This document shows, one piece after another, positions 16,989-61,435 of a DNA stretch of 64,000 nt (position 1 is its first letter; each line of letters begins with the position of its first letter). The notes beneath the pieces are model-generated. The model was given only the letters and a program-made list of their open reading frames with translations. It ran no database searches and was not told the DNA's origin. Both the position numbers and the translations under genes were made by a program. Source of the DNA: a virus; IMG/VR virus record IMGVR_UViG_3300030060_008003, positions 1-64,000 of that record; one strand, 5' to 3'.

Positions 16989-18104
16989 ATGGATAAAGAT
17001 ATTGCTAGCGCATTAGACGCTATAGATAAAGTAAACCCTTTTGCTACTTACCTCGATAATAATACTCTTAGTCATGTTGGAGAATGGATTGATACTGGAT
17101 CATATGTATTAAATGCGATTATCTCTGGTTCAATTAATGGTGGAATTCCTAAAGGTAGAGTAACTATGCTCGCTGGGGAATCTATGACTGGTAAGTCATT
17201 GTTTGTTCAAAAGATTTTAGCTAAAGCTCAAGAAGAAGGGCTTACTCCTGTTATTTTTGATACTGAAAATGCTATTGATCCAGATGGTGCAGCAAGACTT
17301 GGTTTAGATATTAGTAAAGTAAAATACGTACCTACTACTAGTATTGAACAAGCAAGAAACGCTCTATATAAATTTCTTACTTCTGTTAAAGAGAAAGGAC
17401 TTGAAGGTAAGTTCATCGTAGCTATTGATTCTCTTGCTAACTTACAATCTGAACTTGAACTTAGTCGTATGAGTAAAGATAGTACTTCTTCTGATATGGG
17501 TACTAAGGCTCGAGCTATGAAAACCTTGATGCAAACTTGTACCAACTTAGGTGCTATTACTCAGACTACAATCCTCTGTACTAACCATGTATATGACGAC
17601 CCTACTGCACTGTTTCCTTCTATTGAAAAGAACATGCCAGGTGGTAAGTCATGTGTATATCTACCCTCTGTAACTGTACAATTAGCGCGTAAGCCTATGA
17701 AATCAGATGGTGGTAAAACTGTTGATGGTGAATTGGCTGTAGGTCAGAAAAAATACTCTGGTATCATTATTAGAGCTTTAACACGTAAAAATAGATTTAT
17801 CAAACAATATCTAGAGGGTGAAATGTATCTTTCTTTCTCTACTGGTTTGGATAGATACTACGGACTAGTGGACTTAGCAGTTGGAGTAGGAGCAGTGATA
17901 CAAACTGGAGCTACCTATCAACTTGAAGATGGTAAAAAGTTAGGATATTATAAAAATTGGCGTAAAGATGAGAAACTCTGGGAAGAGACTATTTTACCTA
18001 AAGTAGAGGAAAGAATTAAAGACGAATGGTCGTATAGCAATAAAGAAGGTGAGGAAGCTCCTGATGAAATTGGATTAGAAGATTTATTAGATGGTGATAA
18101 ATAA
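16989..18104 (+). CDS. uvsX: UvsX RecA-like recombinase
   Basis: DTGSYVLNAIISG, GESMTGKS, DTENA, IDSL, MPGG. Confidence 0.95.
   Translation: MDKDIASALDAIDKVNPFATYLDNNTLSHVGEWIDTGSYVLNAIISGSINGGIPKGRVTMLAGESMTGKSLFVQKILAKAQEEGLTPVIFDTENAIDPDGAARLGLDISKVKYVPTTSIEQARNALYKFLTSVKEKGLEGKFIVAIDSLANLQSELELSRMSKDSTSSDMGTKARAMKTLMQTCTNLGAITQTTILCTNHVYDDPTALFPSIEKNMPGGKSCVYLPSVTVQLARKPMKSDGGKTVDGELAVGQKKYSGIIIRALTRKNRFIKQYLEGEMYLSFSTGLDRYYGLVDLAVGVGAVIQTGATYQLEDGKKLGYYKNWRKDEKLWEETILPKVEERIKDEWSYSNKEGEEAPDEIGLEDLLDGDK
18098..18103 (+). promoter_or_regulatory. late promoter core (TylF-like)
   Basis: TAAATA-5nt-ATG. Confidence 0.55.
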
Positions 18105-18108
18105 CGTA

Positions 18109-18795
18109 ATGAAAATTGGTCATAAATTTCGCGAGCAAATACTAAGCGATATACGTCATGAAGCTTTTAAAAAAGCCGTAAGGTTTATTAACTATGAGTT
18201 AGTACCTGGTGATATATGTGAGTTCGGATGTTATACAGGAAGAAGCTTAGCTAGTTTAGCGTACTCCCATCAACAATACTTTCAAGACGAAAATCAACAT
18301 AATAGAAAGAGTAGTATAGATAGAAATATATACGGGTTTGATAGTTTTGAAGGGTTACAAGATTCAGAAGGTCATCCAAGATGGGAAAAAGGCGTATTTA
18401 AGATTAATCATTCCTTTCACCCTCTTATCGGTTATGGAGAAGACGTTACCCCGAAAAAAGTAGTTAACTTCTTCTCGCATTATAATCTTCAAACCCCTAT
18501 TATTAAGGCTGGTTATTTTGAAGATATAGAAATTGATGATATCAACGAAATTGCTATTCTACATATAGACTGCGATCTATATACAAGTACAAAAACTGTA
18601 TTAAACTTAACTAGAGATAAATTAGTACCTGGTAGTATAATTTTATTTGATGATTGGTTTCATTTTAGAGGTGATAGAAACAAAGGCGAACGATTAGCAT
18701 TTAAAGAATTTTTGGAAGAAAATAAAAATATTAAAACAGAAGAATTTTTAAGATACGGTACCTTCTGTAAAGCTTTTATAATTAATGAAACGTAA
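18109..18795 (+). CDS. TylF/MycF-family O-methyltransferase
   Basis: GDICEFGCYTGRS, GFDSFEGL, LHIDCDLY, FDDW; ATG 18109 is 5 nt after TAAATA. Confidence 0.85.
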   Translation: MKIGHKFREQILSDIRHEAFKKAVRFINYELVPGDICEFGCYTGRSLASLAYSHQQYFQDENQHNRKSSIDRNIYGFDSFEGLQDSEGHPRWEKGVFKINHSFHPLIGYGEDVTPKKVVNFFSHYNLQTPIIKAGYFEDIEIDDINEIAILHIDCDLYTSTKTVLNLTRDKLVPGSIILFDDWFHFRGDRNKGERLAFKEFLEENKNIKTEEFLRYGTFCKAFIINET

Positions 18796-19543
18796 ACTAG
18801 TATTAACTCTTAGCGGTGGAATGGACTCGTCTGTGCTGTTGTATATGGCACAAGATCGAGGTTATGAAGAAATACATACTCTAACTTTTGATTATGGTCA
18901 GCGACATAAACGTGAATTAACGTGTGTTAATAAACAAATTAATAATTTTAACGAGCAGTTTTCCGGTTGGTTTAATTTAGAGGTAACTAATAAGGTCTTA
19001 GATGTAAAATACATTAGAGATATTGCTCCTACTTCATCTTTAACTAATGAAGATATTGATAATCCCAATATTAGTGAAATGGCCGGTGATGCACAACCTG
19101 TATCATATGTACCGTTTCGAAACTTAATGTTTTTATCTATCTGCTCTTCGTATGCTGAGAGTGTTGGTGCTGATACTGTTTGGTATGGTGCTGCTCAAGT
19201 AGATTCGCTAGCTGGTTATTGGGACGGTAGTGAAGAGTTTGTAGATGTAGTTAATAATGTAACTGATCTTAATAGAGAAAATAGGATTGTAATTGAAGCC
19301 CCGTTACTTGAAATGTCTAAAGCTGAAATTATTAAAGAGGGTGCTAGACTTGGTGTTAAGTTTAAAGATACTTGGACTTGTTATTCGGATAGAAAAGATA
19401 AACTAGCAGATGCTACTACGCCGTCGAGTAGTATGAGAGTAAAAGGGTTTGTGGATGCTGGTTTAAAAGACCCTATTGCTTACATCCAACAAGAAAAGTT
19501 GGATAAGCTATACGAAGAAAATAATTGTAAAGAGTGCGCTTAA
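18785..19543 (+). CDS. queC: QueC-like PP-loop ATP pyrophosphatase with degenerate Zn site
   Basis: SGGMDS, FDYGQRH, SSLT, YVPFRN, SKAEII, TWTCY; CxxCxxC replaced by DATTPSS. Confidence 0.75.
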   Translation: MKRKLVLTLSGGMDSSVLLYMAQDRGYEEIHTLTFDYGQRHKRELTCVNKQINNFNEQFSGWFNLEVTNKVLDVKYIRDIAPTSSLTNEDIDNPNISEMAGDAQPVSYVPFRNLMFLSICSSYAESVGADTVWYGAAQVDSLAGYWDGSEEFVDVVNNVTDLNRENRIVIEAPLLEMSKAEIIKEGARLGVKFKDTWTCYSDRKDKLADATTPSSSMRVKGFVDAGLKDPIAYIQQEKLDKLYEENNCKECA

Positions 19544-21649: not shown

Positions 21650-22312
21650 ATGTGTGCAATTTTCGGATCGTTTGATAAGACTATGTTAGAGGTCTTATAC
21701 GACGCAAATAAGGAACGTGGTAATTTTGCTAGTAGTATTGTATGCTTGTCAGATGATGATCAGTATATTGCTAAATATGAAGGTGATATAAATTTTGATA
21801 AATTTAACTATGCTGGTAGAAAAGACATAGAATATCTTCTAGGGCATGTACAAGCTCCTACCTCAGCTAAAAGAACTTGGAATTATAATACATCACATCC
21901 GTTCGAATCTATGACTTGGTTAGTGAGTCATAATGGCGTTCTAACGAATGAAAAAAAGCTAAGAAGAAAGCATACAAGATTTTTAGAAAATCCTGTTGAT
22001 ACAGCTGTTATAGTTGAGTTACTTGAGAAATATTCACAAGTTAATAAAACACCTATCAATACTATTAAGCAAGTACTACCGATGCTTGAAGGTTCGTTTG
22101 CTTTAAGTGTTGTTAATTGTGATACGAACGATGTGTTTATTGCTAGAGTAGGATCTGTATTACATTACAATAACAAAGGTAACTACACTACAATGCCAGG
22201 AGCTGGTTATAAGGTTTTACCAGAAGGTGTAATAATGAAGTTAAATAAGAGAACAAAACGTTGGAATAAAGCTGGGACTTTTGAAGTTAAGTCTCCATTT
22301 ACATTTGTATGA
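21650..22312 (+). CDS. stand-alone class II (Ntn) glutamine amidotransferase
   Basis: N-terminal MCAIFG, RG, HPF, HNGVLTN, VDT, EGSFA. Confidence 0.85.
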   Translation: MCAIFGSFDKTMLEVLYDANKERGNFASSIVCLSDDDQYIAKYEGDINFDKFNYAGRKDIEYLLGHVQAPTSAKRTWNYNTSHPFESMTWLVSHNGVLTNEKKLRRKHTRFLENPVDTAVIVELLEKYSQVNKTPINTIKQVLPMLEGSFALSVVNCDTNDVFIARVGSVLHYNNKGNYTTMPGAGYKVLPEGVIMKLNKRTKRWNKAGTFEVKSPFTFV

Positions 22313-22968
22313 GCAACACATTTATATTTTCTGCTACAGCAGGTAAAAAAGAAGATTCAATGCTTTATAATACTTGTAAAGATGAAGGAATTGATATCTT
22401 CATTAAAGAGCATAATAAAGAATCGTTACAAAAAACATATAACAAAGCAATCGATTTTGCAATTAAGGAAAGAGTTGAAAATCTAGTTCTTGTTCATGAT
22501 GATGTAATATTAGAAGCTTTTTCAGAGAGAAGAATAGAAAAAAACTTTGAAAAATTTGATATAGTAGGTGTCGCCGGTTGTAATAAAGTAACTCTTAAAA
22601 AACCAGTATTGTGGCATTTACTTGGAGGAGGATTTGAAGGCGGGCATTTAATCGGTGCAGTTGCACATGGTACAGTAAATCAAAAACACATGGGTGGTTT
22701 TGGATTTTACCCTAACAGAGCTATTCTTATTGATGGAGTCTTTTTGGTTATAAAGAGAAAGGTATTTGAAAAAATACGATTTGATGAGTCGTGTCCATCT
22801 AAGTGGCATTTTTATGATTTAGATTATTCTATGCAATGTCACAAAGCTGGGTTTAAAGTTGGCGTTGGTGATTTTATTATAACACACAAATCTCCCGGTC
22901 TTACAGAGTTTACTGAAGAGTTTCAAAAAGGCGAAGACTGGTTTCTTGATAAGTGGAAAACTCAATAA
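22309..22968 (+). CDS. GT-A glycosyltransferase (Glyco_tranf_2_5-like)
   Basis: YNKAI, LVHDDV, GVAG, IDGVF, FDE, WHFYDLDYS, HKSPG. Confidence 0.8.
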   Translation: MSNTFIFSATAGKKEDSMLYNTCKDEGIDIFIKEHNKESLQKTYNKAIDFAIKERVENLVLVHDDVILEAFSERRIEKNFEKFDIVGVAGCNKVTLKKPVLWHLLGGGFEGGHLIGAVAHGTVNQKHMGGFGFYPNRAILIDGVFLVIKRKVFEKIRFDESCPSKWHFYDLDYSMQCHKAGFKVGVGDFIITHKSPGLTEFTEEFQKGEDWFLDKWKTQ

Positions 22969-31609: not shown

Positions 31610-31843
31610 ATGAATAAACATGAATTTAAACTGAAAGACGGTACAACGAAGACGATGGACTTTGATGAACTAGTTCGTTGGGCTTGTCTAATTGAAGCGC
31701 TTGAAGTAGTAGGTGGTAGAGAAGATATCGATATTGAAAGTAATAACTGGATTAAGCCTCTCGCTTTTCAAAAGTATATTGATGAAAGATTTCATTCAAT
31801 GAAGCATGATCTCAAGGTAGAAGCTACTTTAGGTAACTTATAA
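31610..31843 (+). CDS. hypothetical protein
   Basis: 77 aa; GGAACT-ATAA-TATAAT promoter-like motif upstream. Confidence 0.6.
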   Translation: MNKHEFKLKDGTTKTMDFDELVRWACLIEALEVVGGREDIDIESNNWIKPLAFQKYIDERFHSMKHDLKVEATLGNL

Positions 31844-32665
31844 ACCTAATTCTTCTTTTACAGTTTGGATATATTCTGCTGATACTTTGTCTTTAAATCT
31901 TTTGATTATTTCATTAGTATCTTTTCCAATTTCTTGGAATCCAATCATATAATTACGGAATCTATCTTCTTTAGTTGGGCGATAAGGAACACCAGTGGGT
32001 CTACCAAAGCGATGTAACCATCGAAGAAATGGTAAACAAACAGCCTTTCGCCCAGCTAATCTATATTTTTCATGAATATAGCCTTCTTCACCACCAAACC
32101 CTCTAAACTTTTTATTAAAGCCTAACCAGCTATCTTTTCTACATGTAAATAAACCTAAACCTTGTGCTGGTATTTCAAATGGTTTATTATTAGGATCTTT
32201 ACCTCGTTTATCTGTATCCCAAACACCCCACATATCACTGCCCCACTTATCGAGATTAAAGTGGGTGCTTACGTTCTTCATATCATCGTATATTAACGGT
32301 CCCTGTAAAAGGTTTTGATGATCTTTACCCGCGTCGTAAAAATCTAAAAGCTTTTTTAAGCTGCCAGGATCTAATAATACATGACAATCTAATACTAATA
32401 CGTATTCAGTGTTAGCTAAACCAAATATTTTATCTCTTAAAGAGGTTGCTGAAAAACCATCAAACTCAACATATGTTACAGGCTCTTTAAGCCAGTCGAC
32501 AAACTTACGGATCTCTCTTCCTTGTGCTGATTTAGGATTATTGTTAATGATAACAAATTCTAACCTATCTAATACCTCTTTATGGTGTAATCTTAAGGAT
32601 TGAATTGTAAAATAGAGACCTTCATAGTCATCGTAAACGCAAGTTCCAATAGTTAGTTTTCCCAC
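31838..32665 (-). CDS. GT-A glycosyltransferase with ppGalNAc-T-like motifs
   Basis: VLDCHV (DxH), GLGLF, FGGEEG, WLHRFGR. Confidence 0.75.
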   Translation of the reverse strand: MGKLTIGTCVYDDYEGLYFTIQSLRLHHKEVLDRLEFVIINNNPKSAQGREIRKFVDWLKEPVTYVEFDGFSATSLRDKIFGLANTEYVLVLDCHVLLDPGSLKKLLDFYDAGKDHQNLLQGPLIYDDMKNVSTHFNLDKWGSDMWGVWDTDKRGKDPNNKPFEIPAQGLGLFTCRKDSWLGFNKKFRGFGGEEGYIHEKYRLAGRKAVCLPFLRWLHRFGRPTGVPYRPTKEDRFRNYMIGFQEIGKDTNEIIKRFKDKVSAEYIQTVKEELGL

Positions 32666-32676
32666 ACTAATAATTA

Positions 32677-35600
32677 CTAAAACTGCAAGTTATTGCAATC
32701 TTCATCCTCCGGACAAATAGTTGTAGTCACCGTTAATACAGGAGGAACTGTCGTTGTCGTAGTAGTTGTCGTTGTCGTAGTAGTCGTAGTTGTAAGCTCG
32801 TCCATTATGAACGGTGTTTGTAACGGTAAAATAGGAGCCGGATATATAAATGTCGGTGGTTCCGGTGGTTCTGGCGGTTCCGGTGGTTCCGGTGGTTCGG
32901 GAGGCAGAGTAACTACTGGGTCACGAGGGTCCGGAGGACCGCCAAAGTCATTCGGTGTAACAATATGTGGTGGAATAGTCGTACACGGAGGTGGAGGAGT
33001 AGTATATACTGGCGGCGTCGTATACGGGGGAGTAGTGTACGGAGGTGTAGTGTATGGGGGTGTCGTATACGGAGGAGTAGTTTTATAAGGTGGTTCAGTT
33101 GTAGGATCTTCATATATCCTAAAATCACTACCACTTCCGTCAGTTGGATCAGAAAATATTAATCCAGGTAAATCAATTGTTATATCAATCGGGCTACCGT
33201 TTAATGAACCATCTGATTCGTCATCTGGCTCAGGGTAAGGATTATAGCATATACCCTCTTCATTACGCCTCCAGCCATCAGGGCAAACATCCACACATTC
33301 TCCGTTAACTCTTTCCTTACCTTCAGGACACGGTGGTGGGGTTACTGGAGGCGTTGTATCATCCGGTGGAGGAGTCGTACCATCATCCGGTGGAGGAGTC
33401 GTACCATCATCCGGTGGAGGAGTTGTATAACCACCACCTGGATCAGGTGTAGTGTCTGTACCGTCCCCTGCACCCTTTAAAAGTTCTTCATCAATATCAA
33501 CTGTGTTAGGTGTATAATCACCACCGTACACACCCATCGTTTCACCTGCTAGTCTAGTTATTGCATTGTTTATAAGCTCCTGTATTGCAAGTGTACCGTA
33601 GAAAGGACCACCGCTAGTAGTAAAATGAGTTTCAATTAGAATCGGTGTATTATTTGTATATATAAAAGTAGGGGAACTACTATCGCCTTTTTGTAATGGT
33701 TCATTGATGTAATTATCAGACTCTCGATATTCTTCGTCAACTTGATCGTGTGGTGGAAATGTAATATTAACACCATTATTAGATCCCCCTCCATATTTTA
33801 CAATAAGCGCTTTTCTTTCTTGATCCGTGCGTACAAAATGACCACCTTTTAGAATTTCTGAATATTCAGTCAAACTCTTAGGTTGAGGTAGTGAGTAAAT
33901 TGTTACATTATCAACCGGTTCATTGAGTAAACCAACAGTTACATCATACTTATCAGAACCTCCGACTTCCCGATCTAGATTTTGCGTTAAAACTATCCTT
34001 CTAGTAATTCTATTTCCATTTTTATCTACAAAAACTACTTCACCGCCAAATGGATCATTAGGACCATATAAAACAGGCCAATGTTTTGATATGACGACAT
34101 GCTGCGGGGTTATTAATGTAGCTGCCTTTCTCCATGGAGGTGGTCTATCATTTTGATTTTGTGGTGACCATGTTTCTGCACCAGCCTCATTAACTCCGGA
34201 AAAATCTACTTTTGACAGCCCATTACCAAAGTTAATAGGCATTGCATCTAAAAGAACCTTATTTATATTCTTAGCTGTTTGTGATGGCTCTCGCGCAGCT
34301 AGCTGCGACTCTATAGTCTCTGGGTCTTCAAATACTAAATCCGGATTATCGTCTAAAAACTTTTGGATAATACCGAGATCATCGTCTAGAAAACGCATCT
34401 GTATAAGCTTAGCATCCGCCGGCAGATTACTATCTCTGATTTCTACGTACTTTGCGTATGTTTCCTCAGCCAGTTCAACTATTTTTGTCCAGGTTAATAA
34501 CTCTAATTGACTAATTAGCCTTCGTTCACGAGCCTCGAAGCGTTTAGCAGCAATTTCTTCAATTCTAGCCGCTCGATCTATACCTTGTTGTCTTTGAGAT
34601 TCTAATTCTAGCTCAGCCTGCGATGTTCGATCCTCTTCTTCTTGTCTTTTCGCTTCAGCACGAGCTTCTGCTTCCTTTACTTTATCATCACTAACTTGCT
34701 GAATAGCTTGTTGTCGAGCTTGAGCTGCATTAAATAAAAACTGATTTATTAATACTGTTGTTGTACCTAACGAATTAATTTGATCAATATACTCTTGCTT
34801 TCTATAATAAGGTATAACATCCTCGCCTAATGAACTTATCGCCCGGTCTTTTATTGCATTAAGTCTTTCGAGCCTTTCTGCTACAACTCGCGCAGCAGCA
34901 TCTGCTGAAGCCTTATCAGCAGCGCGCTGCGCTGCATCCACCGCCCCTTTAAGTGATTCTATTTTTGCAAGTATGCTAACAAAAGCTGCCGCAAGGTTAA
35001 GAGCTGTAATTTTACTAGCATTTGTCCTCTGTGTAATTTGCCAGACAGCTGCTTGACTCCCAACTTGGCCTGTTTTATATGTTTCCTCTGCAAAAACAGC
35101 TGCAGCGTCTATAGCTTGTGATGCGCTTACAATATTATTATAAACATCTGTTATCGCAGTATTTGATAATACATTAAAATTATTAGCTGTAGTTAACCAT
35201 TGGTTAACACTCATCAAAGCCATAGCAACCTTTCCATTTGCTAAGTTCGCTGAGTCTCTGGCTCTTTCAGCCATGTCATTTAGATTTGTAACTCGATCTA
35301 CAAAACTTTGCGGAAATTCATTAGGCCTTCTTTGATTTTGTGCTCTTAATGACAAGCCAAGTGTTCCGGGTGAGTAACCGCGACCTCCGGAGGCGTTCGT
35401 ACCTGCTCCAATTGTATTCTCAGCAGCAGTAACTGATTCTTCAGCTAACACAGCTGCCGCTGCTAACGGATCGCGTATTGTATCAACAATATCACTCTTA
35501 CTAATCGTAACAGTTTCCGTCTCTGGAGCTGATTCGAGGTCTTCAGTAAGGCCACTTAACCCACTGTCACCAGGATAAGTTACCGTTGGGGTAGTTCCTC

Positions 35601-36306
35601 CCCCTGGTGGAGGTGTAACTTCATCAGGCGGTTGTGTAACACCCGTGTTTTCAACAATAGAAGGACGTGATGGTTCTGATTCCAAAACATCCGTAATAAT
35701 CTCTACTTCCCTTACAGTTACCCCCTCGCTCTGTGTATTATTAAAAAGGCCAGATATTAAATCTTGACTCTCTTGATTTAATCCTTCACTCTCTCGAGCC
35801 GGTGGTGGAGTAACACCAGGTGTCGATGGATCGTAATTAGGGTTAGGTATGTTTAAAGTTTGAGATTTAACATATGGCCTACCATCTACAATTTGCTGAA
35901 GAGATACAGTAACATCCATGCTACCGTCTTTAGCAACTTCATCAGCACCTAAAGTTAATCTTGCAGCATTTATAGTTATCTGCGCAGTACCAGCCGATAC
36001 TGCTGAATCACCATCTTCAAGTTCTGTCTTATTGTTAAAATCTTCAACAAAATATTCTACTTCCCCATCAAACCCTTTACTCAATGAAACGTAATCAACA
36101 TTAATGACCCCAGTGGTGTTATCAAATGAGCCCTCAACGCCACCAGCGCCGAGTTGCGGATAAGATATAACAGTTACAAAAACGTCTTGTATCTGTACAT
36201 CTGGATCTCCTAAATGCACAGAAGCCGGCGCCGGGGTTCCAGACGACAACCCCATTGGATCAGGAGTTGTTTGATATTGAGAAAAATCTGGAGCCGGTGT
36301 TTCCAT
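32677..36306 (-). CDS. large putative virion protein: coiled coil, trypsin-like serine protease, Cys-rich unit and mucin-like Pro/Thr tail
   Basis: ATLITPQHVVISKH, DVTVGLL, GDSSSP; CPEGKERVNGECVDVCPDG; PPPDDGTT, YTTPP, PPE and poly-Thr repeats. Confidence 0.7.
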   Translation of the reverse strand: METPAPDFSQYQTTPDPMGLSSGTPAPASVHLGDPDVQIQDVFVTVISYPQLGAGGVEGSFDNTTGVINVDYVSLSKGFDGEVEYFVEDFNNKTELEDGDSAVSAGTAQITINAARLTLGADEVAKDGSMDVTVSLQQIVDGRPYVKSQTLNIPNPNYDPSTPGVTPPPARESEGLNQESQDLISGLFNNTQSEGVTVREVEIITDVLESEPSRPSIVENTGVTQPPDEVTPPPGGGTTPTVTYPGDSGLSGLTEDLESAPETETVTISKSDIVDTIRDPLAAAAVLAEESVTAAENTIGAGTNASGGRGYSPGTLGLSLRAQNQRRPNEFPQSFVDRVTNLNDMAERARDSANLANGKVAMALMSVNQWLTTANNFNVLSNTAITDVYNNIVSASQAIDAAAVFAEETYKTGQVGSQAAVWQITQRTNASKITALNLAAAFVSILAKIESLKGAVDAAQRAADKASADAAARVVAERLERLNAIKDRAISSLGEDVIPYYRKQEYIDQINSLGTTTVLINQFLFNAAQARQQAIQQVSDDKVKEAEARAEAKRQEEEDRTSQAELELESQRQQGIDRAARIEEIAAKRFEARERRLISQLELLTWTKIVELAEETYAKYVEIRDSNLPADAKLIQMRFLDDDLGIIQKFLDDNPDLVFEDPETIESQLAAREPSQTAKNINKVLLDAMPINFGNGLSKVDFSGVNEAGAETWSPQNQNDRPPPWRKAATLITPQHVVISKHWPVLYGPNDPFGGEVVFVDKNGNRITRRIVLTQNLDREVGGSDKYDVTVGLLNEPVDNVTIYSLPQPKSLTEYSEILKGGHFVRTDQERKALIVKYGGGSNNGVNITFPPHDQVDEEYRESDNYINEPLQKGDSSSPTFIYTNNTPILIETHFTTSGGPFYGTLAIQELINNAITRLAGETMGVYGGDYTPNTVDIDEELLKGAGDGTDTTPDPGGGYTTPPPDDGTTPPPDDGTTPPPDDTTPPVTPPPCPEGKERVNGECVDVCPDGWRRNEEGICYNPYPEPDDESDGSLNGSPIDITIDLPGLIFSDPTDGSGSDFRIYEDPTTEPPYKTTPPYTTPPYTTPPYTTPPYTTPPVYTTPPPPCTTIPPHIVTPNDFGGPPDPRDPVVTLPPEPPEPPEPPEPPEPPTFIYPAPILPLQTPFIMDELTTTTTTTTTTTTTTTVPPVLTVTTTICPEDEDCNNLQF
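32748..33090 (-). repeat. coding tandem repeats: poly-Thr, (PPE)n, (YTTPP)n
   Basis: Degenerate 3/18-bp, 9-bp and 15-bp in-frame units. Confidence 0.85.
33358..33428 (-). repeat. 24-bp coding tandem repeat, about 3 copies (TTPPPDDG)
   Basis: ATCCGGTGGAGGAGTCGTACCATC at 33361, 33385 and partially at 33409. Confidence 0.9.
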
Positions 36307-59669: not shown

Positions 59670-60113
59670 ATGGCTGAAGAAGAGCTAGATGAAGCAGTTA
59701 ACGATATTATTGCTCAAATAAAAGGTAATAACAATACTGTACGTGAAAAAAAGCAAGATGTAACTATCGATAAAGATAATCTTGAAGAGTTTATTATGAA
59801 GTCTTCCGGTAAACTGGTTGCTAAATCACTTGAAATTGTTGATAACGTTAATGATTACATTTCATCGGCTCCAGAAAATAGAGATGTTGCTGCATTAGCA
59901 GAAGTTATAAAAGCAACAGCCGGTTCAATTGATACACTTCAAAAACTTCATAGTTCAAATGAGAGAAATGAAACACAAAAAGAAGTAAAACGTATGGATG
60001 TCGAATCGAAGGAGAGATTAAACATTGCTGATAATCAAACTAAAATGCTATTATCTAGAGACGATATAATGAAAGCTTTAGTTGAAAAGGATGATGACGT
60101 TATTGATGTTTAA
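59670..60113 (+). CDS. 16: gp16-like terminase small subunit
   Basis: Helical; NRDVAALAEVIK...IDTLQKLH...SRDDIMKAL resembles the gp16 pattern; late promoter. Confidence 0.55.
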   Translation: MAEEELDEAVNDIIAQIKGNNNTVREKKQDVTIDKDNLEEFIMKSSGKLVAKSLEIVDNVNDYISSAPENRDVAALAEVIKATAGSIDTLQKLHSSNERNETQKEVKRMDVESKERLNIADNQTKMLLSRDDIMKALVEKDDDVIDV

Positions 60114-61435
60114 AACTTAAGGTTATCGCAATTATCCTCGCTCGCACAAATATCTTTTTCTTTAGTTTGAGTTAGATAGTCTTCAAACTCTTTCATTGTT
60201 GGGAATGGCATCCATACTGTCTCACCTGTACTTGTCGGGTGAGAGTGCGAACCAGACAGAGCACCGTTAGTTAATTCAAGCGTCTTATTTGAAGCACTTT
60301 GTGGACTTGTAAAAGTTGTAACGTTTAACACGCCTGGAAAAGTACCAAGTCTATTGATAGCTGTTTGCTCAGGTGTAAATTGAGTTCCTCCTATGTTTGG
60401 ATTTTCGCGAGGTCTACCACCACCACTTCTAGCAGCACCTTGACCAGCTACAGTATATAAATCAAAAGAACCACTACTGGTGGAGAGTGTAAGTCCGAAG
60501 TTTGGTACCGATGGTCCGCAGCAACAGCTGCAACATACTTCAACACACTCTTCATCAATATATTCATTTCCTTGCTCATCAAAAACCTTCTTTAAAATTA
60601 AAAATGACTTACATACTTGCCCGTTCTCTGTTTTTGAGATATTTTGCTCAGGGTCAAAAAAGTTTATATTTCTCTTATATTCGAATAATCTAAATGCATC
60701 TAACCCCAGGTAGTCCTCAATTATTCCAATAATAGTGTTAGCAATACTGCGTAAGATATTACTAAAATTGATATCCTTTAACATAAGGTTACCTACAGCA
60801 ATTGTTGATGCCGTATACCTACCTAGATATTCTGTGTTAACGCGTTCAGCAGGGCGTTTATCGATATACGGGAGCGTGTTATCACTATAAACAGCACTCT
60901 CTGTATTGTATTGAATAACTTGCGCGCAAGTTCTTTGACAGTTACTAAGATTTCTGCGAATAAATGCTGGAGTCTTTTTAACTAGATTTAATGATATGTC
61001 GTTTGATTCGCCATAATAAATTGCTGTACCGGCATTTTGCTGAGCTGTATTCGCAAGACACCCTAATATATCGGGCGATGGAAAAAAGCAGTTCTGTACT
61101 CTTCCTCTACCTCTATAAGGATTTTGCGCATATATAGCTACTTGGTTAGTAAACGGACCATTATATAGTTGTCTTATATAATATAGAGCAGCTTGTTCAT
61201 CTATTTCAGGGTTACCCTTTATGAGGTCGTCAACAAAAACCTGTAGTTGGTTAAATCCTAGCTGATATACCTTTTTAAACGACTCACAAAGCTCTTTGTC
61301 TTTATTTGTAAATGTATAACCTAATATTGGACCTTTACTTTGATCCTTACAATCTGTCTCTATAACAGATACAAACTGATCTTTAGTTAATTCTAAAGCT
61401 CTTAACGTTTCTACACTTTTATTACATATCGCCAT
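60110..61435 (-). CDS. Cys-rich hypothetical protein in the hub operon
   Basis: 441 aa; ECVEVCCSCCCGP; C-terminus ICASEDNCDNLKF. Confidence 0.55.
   Translation of the reverse strand: MAICNKSVETLRALELTKDQFVSVIETDCKDQSKGPILGYTFTNKDKELCESFKKVYQLGFNQLQVFVDDLIKGNPEIDEQAALYYIRQLYNGPFTNQVAIYAQNPYRGRGRVQNCFFPSPDILGCLANTAQQNAGTAIYYGESNDISLNLVKKTPAFIRRNLSNCQRTCAQVIQYNTESAVYSDNTLPYIDKRPAERVNTEYLGRYTASTIAVGNLMLKDINFSNILRSIANTIIGIIEDYLGLDAFRLFEYKRNINFFDPEQNISKTENGQVCKSFLILKKVFDEQGNEYIDEECVEVCCSCCCGPSVPNFGLTLSTSSGSFDLYTVAGQGAARSGGGRPRENPNIGGTQFTPEQTAINRLGTFPGVLNVTTFTSPQSASNKTLELTNGALSGSHSHPTSTGETVWMPFPTMKEFEDYLTQTKEKDICASEDNCDNLKF

Follow-up and report, generated by a model that had tools for sequence, protein, structure and literature searches.

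Can a bacteriophage carry, as two adjacent genes, an enzyme and an acceptor protein for mucin-type O-glycosylation? This modification, started by polypeptide N-acetylgalactosaminyltransferases (ppGalNAc-Ts) on Thr/Ser-Pro repeats, is regarded as eukaryotic. The question is raised by a 64,000-nucleotide (nt) stretch of viral DNA (positions 1 to 64,000 of IMG/VR record IMGVR_UViG_3300030060_008003, hereafter the window), in which the gene for a 275-amino-acid (aa) glycosyltransferase (GT) follows the gene for a 1209-aa protein with a long Thr/Pro-rich tail. The initial annotation, made from the DNA letters, had proposed that the two are enzyme and substrate, with the caution that the motifs by themselves would also fit an ordinary GT2. 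We put the probability at about 0.7 that they form an enzyme-substrate module for mucin-type-like protein O-glycosylation, judging from sequence comparison and structure models. The GT27-like fold of the enzyme, its motifs, and the conserved adjacency of the two genes support this reading; the modification itself, the sugar, and the placement on the virion we infer.

Fold of the glycosyltransferase

The predicted fold of the GT was closest to the ppGalNAc-Ts of family GT27. The AlphaFold (AF2) model had a predicted local distance difference test (pLDDT) score of 95.3 and a predicted template modeling (pTM) score of 0.92. When this model was compared with the Protein Data Bank (PDB) by Foldseek, the top ~48 matches were all GT27 ppGalNAc-Ts, with E values from 1e-13 to 1e-11. 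VIA, a fold search that is independent of Foldseek and covered 48,161 representatives, gave Z scores of 21.5 for GalNAc-T1 (255 of 275 residues at 3.2 Å) and 20.7 for TgGalNAc-T3 of Toxoplasma. The next families were the chondroitin polymerase K4CP (17.9), RmlT (17.1), and TarS (16.9), and far lower scores were obtained for SunS (12.1) and GtrB (11.8), with DPM and cellulose-synthase-type enzymes also low. In both searches, GT27 outranked every GT2, GT7, or other GT-A structure. Structure prediction and comparison with GT27 and GT2 had been suggested as a check at the outset, with a grouping among polysaccharide or DNA GTs to count against the proposed function; by fold ranking, the enzyme grouped with GT27 instead.

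These models suggest that the GT works like a minimal cytosolic catalytic domain of the GT27/GT60 type, and by sequence it falls in neither family. Three other kinds of enzyme were considered as the closest analogue and rejected on fold ranking together with gene context: GtrB-type lipid-carrier GTs (Z 11.8), SunS-type glycocin GTs (Z 12.1), and DNA glycosyltransferases.

Sequence motifs and family of the glycosyltransferase

The four motifs on which the initial annotation relied, VLDCHV, GLGLF, FGGEEG, and WLHRFGR, were all found in the GT (Table 1). Across 32 homologs of 45%–89% identity (alignment A1), the residues D93, H95, G191-G192-E193-E194, W216, H218, R219, and F220 were invariant. 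Replacement of DxD by DxH is limited to GT27 and GT60, both of which are polypeptide Ser/Thr O-GTs; in GT27, the C-terminal His also coordinates the metal, and GT27 and GT60 belong to one clade with GT7 and chondroitin-synthase GT2s (PMC7185993). The fold ranking of the GT agrees with this clade pattern. In a profile search of PDB sequences, the C-terminal half of the GT matched GalNAc-T7 at an E value of 0.29, and the alignment paired PAQGLGLF with PAMAGGLF, FGGEEGYI with WGGENFEI, and LPFLRWLH with VPCSRVGH, placing H218 on the His of VGHIY. In this alignment, again at E 0.29, FGGEEG keeps the G-G-E of WGGEN, with Phe in place of Trp and Glu in place of Asn.

The GT family is large, with 1747 word-index matches, many of them in Tara samples, and 1685 matches among 50%-identity representatives. 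The only Pfam family assigned to the GT was PF00535, Glycos_transf_2 (37.4 bits against a cutoff of 23.3, E 3e-9), and all 32 family members matched it. This domain is the generic nucleotide-binding half of GT-A enzymes and is common to GT2 and GT27. Pfam Glyco_transf_7C was matched weakly by eight of the 32 members (best E 0.049), and PF11397, the GT60 family, by none of the 32 at E <= 10. Searches of PHROGs, NCBIfam, and PDB with the single sequence found nothing for the GT, and tblastn found no match among INPHARED phages. The protein has no transmembrane or hydrophobic segment (maximum KD19 = 1.43) and ends at residue 275, straight after the catalytic domain; it has neither a ricin-type lectin domain nor a type-II membrane anchor.

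Conservation of the gene pair in related phages

The initial annotation placed the GT 11 nt downstream of the 1209-aa gene on the same strand, and we found the gap to be exactly 11 nt. To assess how widely this arrangement occurs, 80 phage loci from IMG/VR (designated by L numbers, GT identity 55%–99%) were dereplicated at 90% GT identity, leaving 46 assessable clusters. An open reading frame (ORF) with a poly-Thr run and a terminal Cys tag lay directly upstream of the GT, with a gap of 10–13 nt, in 35 of the 46. The proteins in this position, which we call slot proteins, ranged from 104 to 2431 aa and were often non-homologous to the 1209-aa protein outside the tail. Their C-terminal cassette ran in the order CxPC/CC element, Pro-rich stretch, short motif, poly-Thr run, and terminal tag, the short motif being IYPAPILPL in close relatives and ...P-L-[TSN]-x-x-I in distant ones. 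The tag was found in 43 of 1400 real ORFs but in only one of 28,000 shuffled ORFs, and all 43 tag ORFs lay beside the GT or in tandem upstream of it. The tag may be a docking signal for the GT, or it may be an assembly or anchor motif.

Gene order around the pair was also kept in relatives, with the 520-aa fiber, the 553-aa fiber, and the 308-aa protein preceding the slot and the GT. Within this order, the slot protein diverged far faster than its neighbors. In locus L001, for example, the slot protein was 72% identical compared with 99% for the GT, a pattern typical of host-interaction proteins.

Several loci carried more than one tag gene. In L039, L075, and L059, two or three such genes stood in tandem; they differed in their N-terminal domains, and every one had its own poly-Thr and Cys-tag cassette. 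Tandem tag genes were also seen in L041, L045, L049, L050, L067, and L068. Where two or three tag genes stood in tandem, a single GT came after the last one, which suggests that one GT serves several clients.

A FastTree phylogeny of 190 GT domains grouped the tag-associated GTs into a single supported clade, in which 47 of the 58 rows have the tag. On this tree, tag adjacency appears to be inherited from essentially one origin and to have been kept while the N-terminal parts of the slot proteins were exchanged. The sole "bacterial" row in the phage tag clade, L157 (63% identity), comes from a 3.6-kb contig of a Flavobacterium sp. metagenome-assembled genome (MAG) and is probably a phage contig binned into that MAG. 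A reverse scan for one narrow variant of the tag (C-x3-CNKLG[FY]-TAA), which samples a single freshwater lineage and gives no general frequency of tags without a GT, returned 20 genuine poly-Thr tag proteins in 21 matches. Half were directly followed by the GT and the rest were upstream paralogues in multi-copy clusters, with one locus having 5 kb of downstream room and no GT.

The association with Pro/Thr-rich (PT-rich) proteins extended beyond the tag clade. In distant phages (41%–50% GT identity), PT-rich ORFs without the tag, reaching 0.77–0.97 Pro plus Thr in 30 residues, lay directly upstream of the GT in L094, L106/107/110, L112, L119, and L126. In distant phages, PT-rich ORFs were 16 times as dense at up to 0.5 kb from the GT as at distances above 3 kb. 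The initial annotation had named absence of the adjacency from relatives as evidence against it; the pairing proved to be common among close relatives and recurs in distant phages and in bacteria.

One further protein in the window ends in the same tag (ICASEDNCDNLKF). This 441-aa protein is encoded in the baseplate-hub region, has no poly-Thr run, and has in common with the 1209-aa protein a short ...E-C-V-x-V-C element (E 0.1). Pfam gave no match for it, and the 80 GT loci contained no homolog. The protein may be another client of the GT; alternatively, it may indicate that the tag serves in assembly or docking.

Bacterial relatives of the glycosyltransferase

Bacterial homologs were examined in 80 loci from many phyla, in which a GT domain ~50% identical to that of the phage is embedded in proteins of 271–1311 aa. 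A PT-rich ORF occurred within 3 kb of the GT in 41 loci and directly upstream on the same strand in 20. As in the distant phages, these ORFs were concentrated near the GT, at a density of 4.5% within 0.5 kb compared with 0.1% beyond 3 kb (~45-fold). Many were small and began with a conserved leader, RRxLLK...LPxxWxKPVVxSVxxPAHA, followed by a poly-Thr/Pro core; two leader ORFs scored as Tat signals, and apart from weak Tat-signal matches, none was assigned to a Pfam or NCBIfam family. Such leader-plus-core ORFs of near-pure Thr/Pro, 74–200 aa long, were found in L159, L160, L174, L178, L205, L207, L222, and other bacterial loci. Their hosts were Alpha-, Gamma-, and Deltaproteobacteria, Acidobacteriota, Bacteroidota, and Actinomycetota, and the ORFs stood beside fusions of HprK-like and DxH-GT domains. 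A stand-alone 287-aa GT in a Nisaea MAG came directly after a poly-Thr protein of 1989 aa.

The fusion partners of the bacterial GT domain suggest that its substrates are peptides and its donor a UDP-hexose 4-epimer. An N-terminal domain like HprK-related kinase A was recognized at 77–101 bits, below the cutoff of 200, and other partners were PqqD, TPR repeats, and GT25. PqqD has the peptide-binding fold of a RiPP recognition element (RRE), where RiPP stands for ribosomally synthesized and post-translationally modified peptide. In Bradyrhizobium diazoefficiens (L173:4405-6888), a full GalE (UDP-glucose 4-epimerase; 318 bits, above the NCBIfam cutoff) is N-terminal to the DxH GT domain. As a Rosetta-stone hint from sequence, this fusion suggests that the donor is a UDP-Gal or UDP-GalNAc-type sugar.

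A broader interpretation, which we offer tentatively and at somewhat less than even odds, is that the window holds one case of a widespread prokaryotic and phage system of mucin-type O-glycosylation. A clade of GT-A enzymes with DxH and the C-terminal His, the nearest prokaryotic relatives of GT27 and GT60, would be dedicated to poly-Thr/Pro. Its bacterial clients would be small Thr-rich proteins with Tat-like leaders, handled by the HprK-like and PqqD fusions, and its clients in aquatic T4-like phages would be modular tail-region proteins with the poly-Thr and Cys-tag cassette, giving a mucin-like glycan brush on the particles.

Domains of the 1209-aa protein

The 1209-aa protein combines several distinct regions (Table 1), and nothing in Pfam, PHROGs, or NCBIfam matched it. 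The Thr/Pro tail described in the initial annotation, with its TTPPPDDG, YTTPP, PPE, and poly-Thr repeats, is present: 50 Thr, 65 Pro, and 7 Cys occur among the last ~250 residues, and residues 961–1209 are 20% Thr and 26% Pro. Before the poly-Thr run, TTPPPDD is repeated three times (residues 959–992), YTTPP five times (residues 1072–1108), and PPE five times (residues 1134–1151), and these repeats are tandem at the DNA level too. A Thr/Pro segment of this kind was found only in this ORF in the whole 91.5-kb source contig. Because the gene stands at the end of a tail-fiber operon, the protein is likely a virion appendage.

Upstream of the tail, residues ~696–936 were modeled as a chymotrypsin-fold (S1) serine-protease-like domain. 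The AF2 model was of moderate confidence (pLDDT 59.5), and all 50 top VIA matches were S1 proteases (Z 11–12.8); serine-protease clusters in the atlas gave a score of 0.98. His736 (nt 34099–34101), Asp788, and Ser876 were invariant in alignment A2, and the modeled segment appears to follow the Peptidase S1 pattern of a two-barrel fold with His, Asp, and Ser in order. A phmmer search of the segment against PDB sequences gave no significant match. The same domain also occurs in the 2058–2431-aa slot proteins of phages L024 and L025.

The remaining regions are less distinctive. The N-terminal domain had BLAST matches of 46%–63% identity over residues ~3–170 in loci L006, L009, L010, L014, and L015, and the Ala-rich region (residues 281–660) is presumably helical or coiled-coil, judging from its composition.

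Proposed mechanism

Under the enzyme-substrate reading, the GT would be a soluble cytoplasmic GT-A enzyme that uses Asp93, His95, and His218 to hold a divalent metal and a UDP-sugar in the manner of GT27 and GT60. It would be translated late in infection from the same message as the 1209-aa protein and would transfer a sugar to Thr hydroxyls of the Thr/Pro repeats and of the T15 run. The sugar would probably be a hexose or N-acetylhexosamine (HexNAc) of the Gal/GalNAc 4-epimer series. The product may be a glycan stalk that is stiff, hydrated, and resistant to proteases; it would form the C-terminal end of an appendage in the tail region that also bears a chymotrypsin-fold domain.

Several observations weigh against this reading. 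The fold alone leaves the acceptor open, as K4CP, which acts on a polysaccharide, and TarS, which acts on teichoic acid, are only 3.5–4.5 Z units behind GT27. Significant sequence similarity to GT27 was not found, the match at E 0.29 being confined to the C-terminal half, and the N-terminal half fits better with the wall-teichoic-acid GTs TarP and TarS, its best matches in the profile search of PDB sequences (E 7e-5). In 11 of the 46 close clusters, no tag-ending ORF was directly upstream of the GT; three of these had a PT-rich neighbor with a variant ending and one had a poly-Thr ORF 4.4 kb away. About 7 of the 46 had no PT-rich ORF in the DNA examined, and in L032 and L034, the PT gene alone was missing from an otherwise syntenic fiber-fiber-308-aa-slot-GT order. 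Retention of the GT thus does not require a substrate gene next to it. Most of the distant phages likewise lacked a PT-rich ORF in the DNA examined, as did half of the 80 bacterial loci within 3 kb. Finally, since the tag-associated GTs form essentially a single clade, the 35 clusters are not independent events.

Alternative explanations

One alternative, which we consider unlikely, is that the enzyme is indeed a polypeptide or peptide GT but has another client, such as a small peptide or different proteins of the phage or host, with the Cys tag marking assembly or docking. The tag without a poly-Thr run in the 441-aa protein would fit this, as would the tag paralogues up to 4.5 kb from the GT, the locus with 5 kb of room and no GT, and the RiPP-like character of the bacterial relatives, with their leader peptides and RRE-type domains. 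What is kept beside the GT in both phages and bacteria, however, is the Thr-rich composition itself, and bacteria and distant phages keep a PT-rich neighbor that has no tag.

About equally improbable is an ordinary GT2 that acts on a polysaccharide, a teichoic-acid-like polymer, or a lipid-linked glycan, for example in remodeling of the host surface; the PT gene would then be a mere operon neighbor and its tail an unmodified flexible linker. The absence of a membrane segment from the GT and the low fold ranking of GtrB, DPM, and cellulose-synthase-type enzymes argue against such a role, and the combination of DxH and C-terminal His has been reported for polypeptide GTs only. Moreover, PT adjacency occurs in unrelated bacterial phyla and in distant phages with PT proteins that are non-homologous, and the GT domain is fused to peptide-handling PqqD and HprK-like domains. 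On the other side, an ordinary GT2 would accord with PF00535 as the sole Pfam family, with the match of the N-terminal half to TarP/TarS, and with K4CP, RmlT, and TarS as the next structural neighbors, and also with the single-clade history of the tag and the relatives that have no PT neighbor.

A DNA-modifying GT like the T4 glucosyltransferases is very improbable: the genome is T4-like and has another GT and QueC-like genes in its replication module, but the gene lies, translationally coupled, in a late tail-fiber operon, no DNA GT appeared in the fold ranking, and the family is common in bacteria beside small secreted-type Thr-rich proteins.

Comparison with known glycosylation systems

The proposed enzyme-substrate module most closely resembles the GT27 system, with clear differences. 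Mouse GalNAc-T1 (8v9q), human GalNAc-T2 (2ffu/4d0z), and Toxoplasma GalNAc-T3 (8uhv) were the best matches over the whole catalytic domain (~255 residues, ~3.1–3.2 Å), and they have in the same order the DxH, a Gal/GalNAc-T-type motif, GGE(N/E), that FGGEEG resembles in part, and the C-terminal His. Natural acceptors of GT27 are Thr or Ser residues that neighbor Pro in mucin-like repeats, and the tail of the 1209-aa protein has this composition. In contrast, identity to GT27 was only ~14%–17%. GT27 enzymes have a lectin domain and a type-II anchor and reside in the Golgi lumen, whereas the phage GT is a cytosolic protein with none of these features. GT27 is also eukaryotic, whereas the family of the phage GT is found in phages and bacteria.

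The GT60 polypeptide alpha-GlcNAc-transferases, found in protists and prokaryotes, offer a second comparison. They share the DxH with the phage GT, they fall in the same GT-A clade as GT27 (PMC7185993), they use polypeptide Ser/Thr (or Hyp) acceptors, and some members are soluble and cytoplasmic. However, besides the lack of PF11397 matches, no GT60 entry was among the VIA and Foldseek matches listed. Phage proteins named "Glycosyltransferase, GlcNAc" were second-tier structural matches of the GT in BFVD.

In bacteria, glycocin S/O-glycosyltransferases such as SunS (GT2) and RiPP tailoring systems also pair a GT-A enzyme with a genetically adjacent peptide acceptor. The bacterial relatives of the phage GT have RiPP-like traits, namely PqqD and HprK-related domains and neighboring small leader-plus-core ORFs. 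SunS itself is a distant fold match, and the glycocin substrate is a short antimicrobial peptide, whereas the phage candidate, a structural-type protein of 1209 aa, offers potential sites by the dozen.

Among phages, the GTs of mycobacteriophages Che8 and Rita are described in citing papers as covalently glycosylating the phages' own structural proteins, which forms a glycan shield (Freeman et al. 2023, via PMC11256854 and PMC12582341). According to these citing texts, siphoviruses have their major capsid (and tail tube) proteins glycosylated in this way, by GTs encoded close to the right end of the genome, whereas here we propose a tail-region protein as target, and the GT adjoins the proposed substrate gene. 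The citing texts describe no poly-Thr/Pro mucin-like module and no Cys tag.

Our full-text literature searches turned up no account of a phage enzyme that is GT27-like and has poly-Thr partners. To our knowledge, glycosylation by a phage of its own virion has so far been documented for a few mycobacteriophages only. If our reading is correct, abundant marine phages decorate their particles with glycans, with implications for adsorption, for adhesion to marine gels and mucus, for resistance to grazing and proteases, and for how "hypothetical" PT-rich phage proteins are read. It would also reveal a bacterial counterpart in the form of small secreted Thr-rich glycoproteins or peptides and provide a prokaryotic out-group for the origin of GT27 and GT60; the GT family may mark the prokaryotic root of eukaryotic mucin-type glycosylation. 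A compact, lectin-free pair of enzyme and tag would, in addition, be directly testable in E. coli.

Genome setting and other features

The window is part of a 91.5-kb contig (GC content ~0.34) from an uncultured marine T4-like myovirus. Identity of its DNA polymerase to those of cultured phages does not exceed 32%, so that a cultured model is lacking. The 1209-aa gene and the GT are the last genes of a minus-strand tail-fiber operon, with Gp10_C baseplate proteins and two Collar/Mtd_N tail fibers (520 and 553 aa) encoded upstream, followed by a 70-aa ORF, the 308-aa protein, and then the pair.

Table 1. Positions of the module and of other features in the window
Feature	Position	Strand	Basis or remark
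GT gene	31838..32665	-	275-aa ORF, GTG start
WLHRFGR (WLH218RFGR), residues 216–222	32000-32020	-	motif
FGGEEG, residues 190–195	32081-32098	-	motif
GLGLF, residues 169–173	32147-32161	-	motif
DxH, D93/H95 in VLDCHV (DCH, residues 93–95)	32381-32389	-	motif
Junction of 11 nt, TAATTATTA	32666..32676	-	TAG stop to GTG start; tight coupling; 10–13 nt in relatives
1209-aa multidomain protein, proposed substrate	32677..36306	-	distal end of tail-fiber operon
Extreme C-terminal Cys tag, CPEDEDCNNLQF	32680..32715	-	pattern C-x(1-10)-C-x-x-L-x-[FYW]-COOH
Mucin-like Thr/Pro tail, residues ~959–1209, proposed acceptor sites	32680..33432	-	composition and repeats
T15 run, residues 1172–1186	32749-32793	-	in tail
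Conserved IYPAPILPL motif	32821-32847	-	in tail
Small Cys-rich element between PT repeats, residues 993–1020, CPEGKERVNGECVDVCPDGWRRNEEGIC	33247..33330	-	sequence
Chymotrypsin-fold (S1) serine-protease-like domain, residues ~696–936	33499..34221	-	fold model and alignment
GDSSSP with Ser876	33670-33687	-	in protease-like domain
Ala-rich region (17% Ala), residues 281–660	34327..35466	-	composition
N-terminal domain, residues 1–170	35797..36306	-	kept in slot proteins of closer relatives
441-aa protein with tag	60110-61435	-	baseplate-hub region
TylF-type O-methyltransferase	18091-18795		replication module
QueC homolog	18785-19543		replication module
GATase	21650-22312		replication module
Glyco_tranf_2_5 GT-A	22309-22968		replication module

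Other sugar or modification genes lie in the replication module between 18091 and 22968. They encode a TylF-type O-methyltransferase, a QueC homolog, a GATase, and a second GT-A enzyme of the Glyco_tranf_2_5 family, and they could serve in glycan elaboration or in DNA modification.

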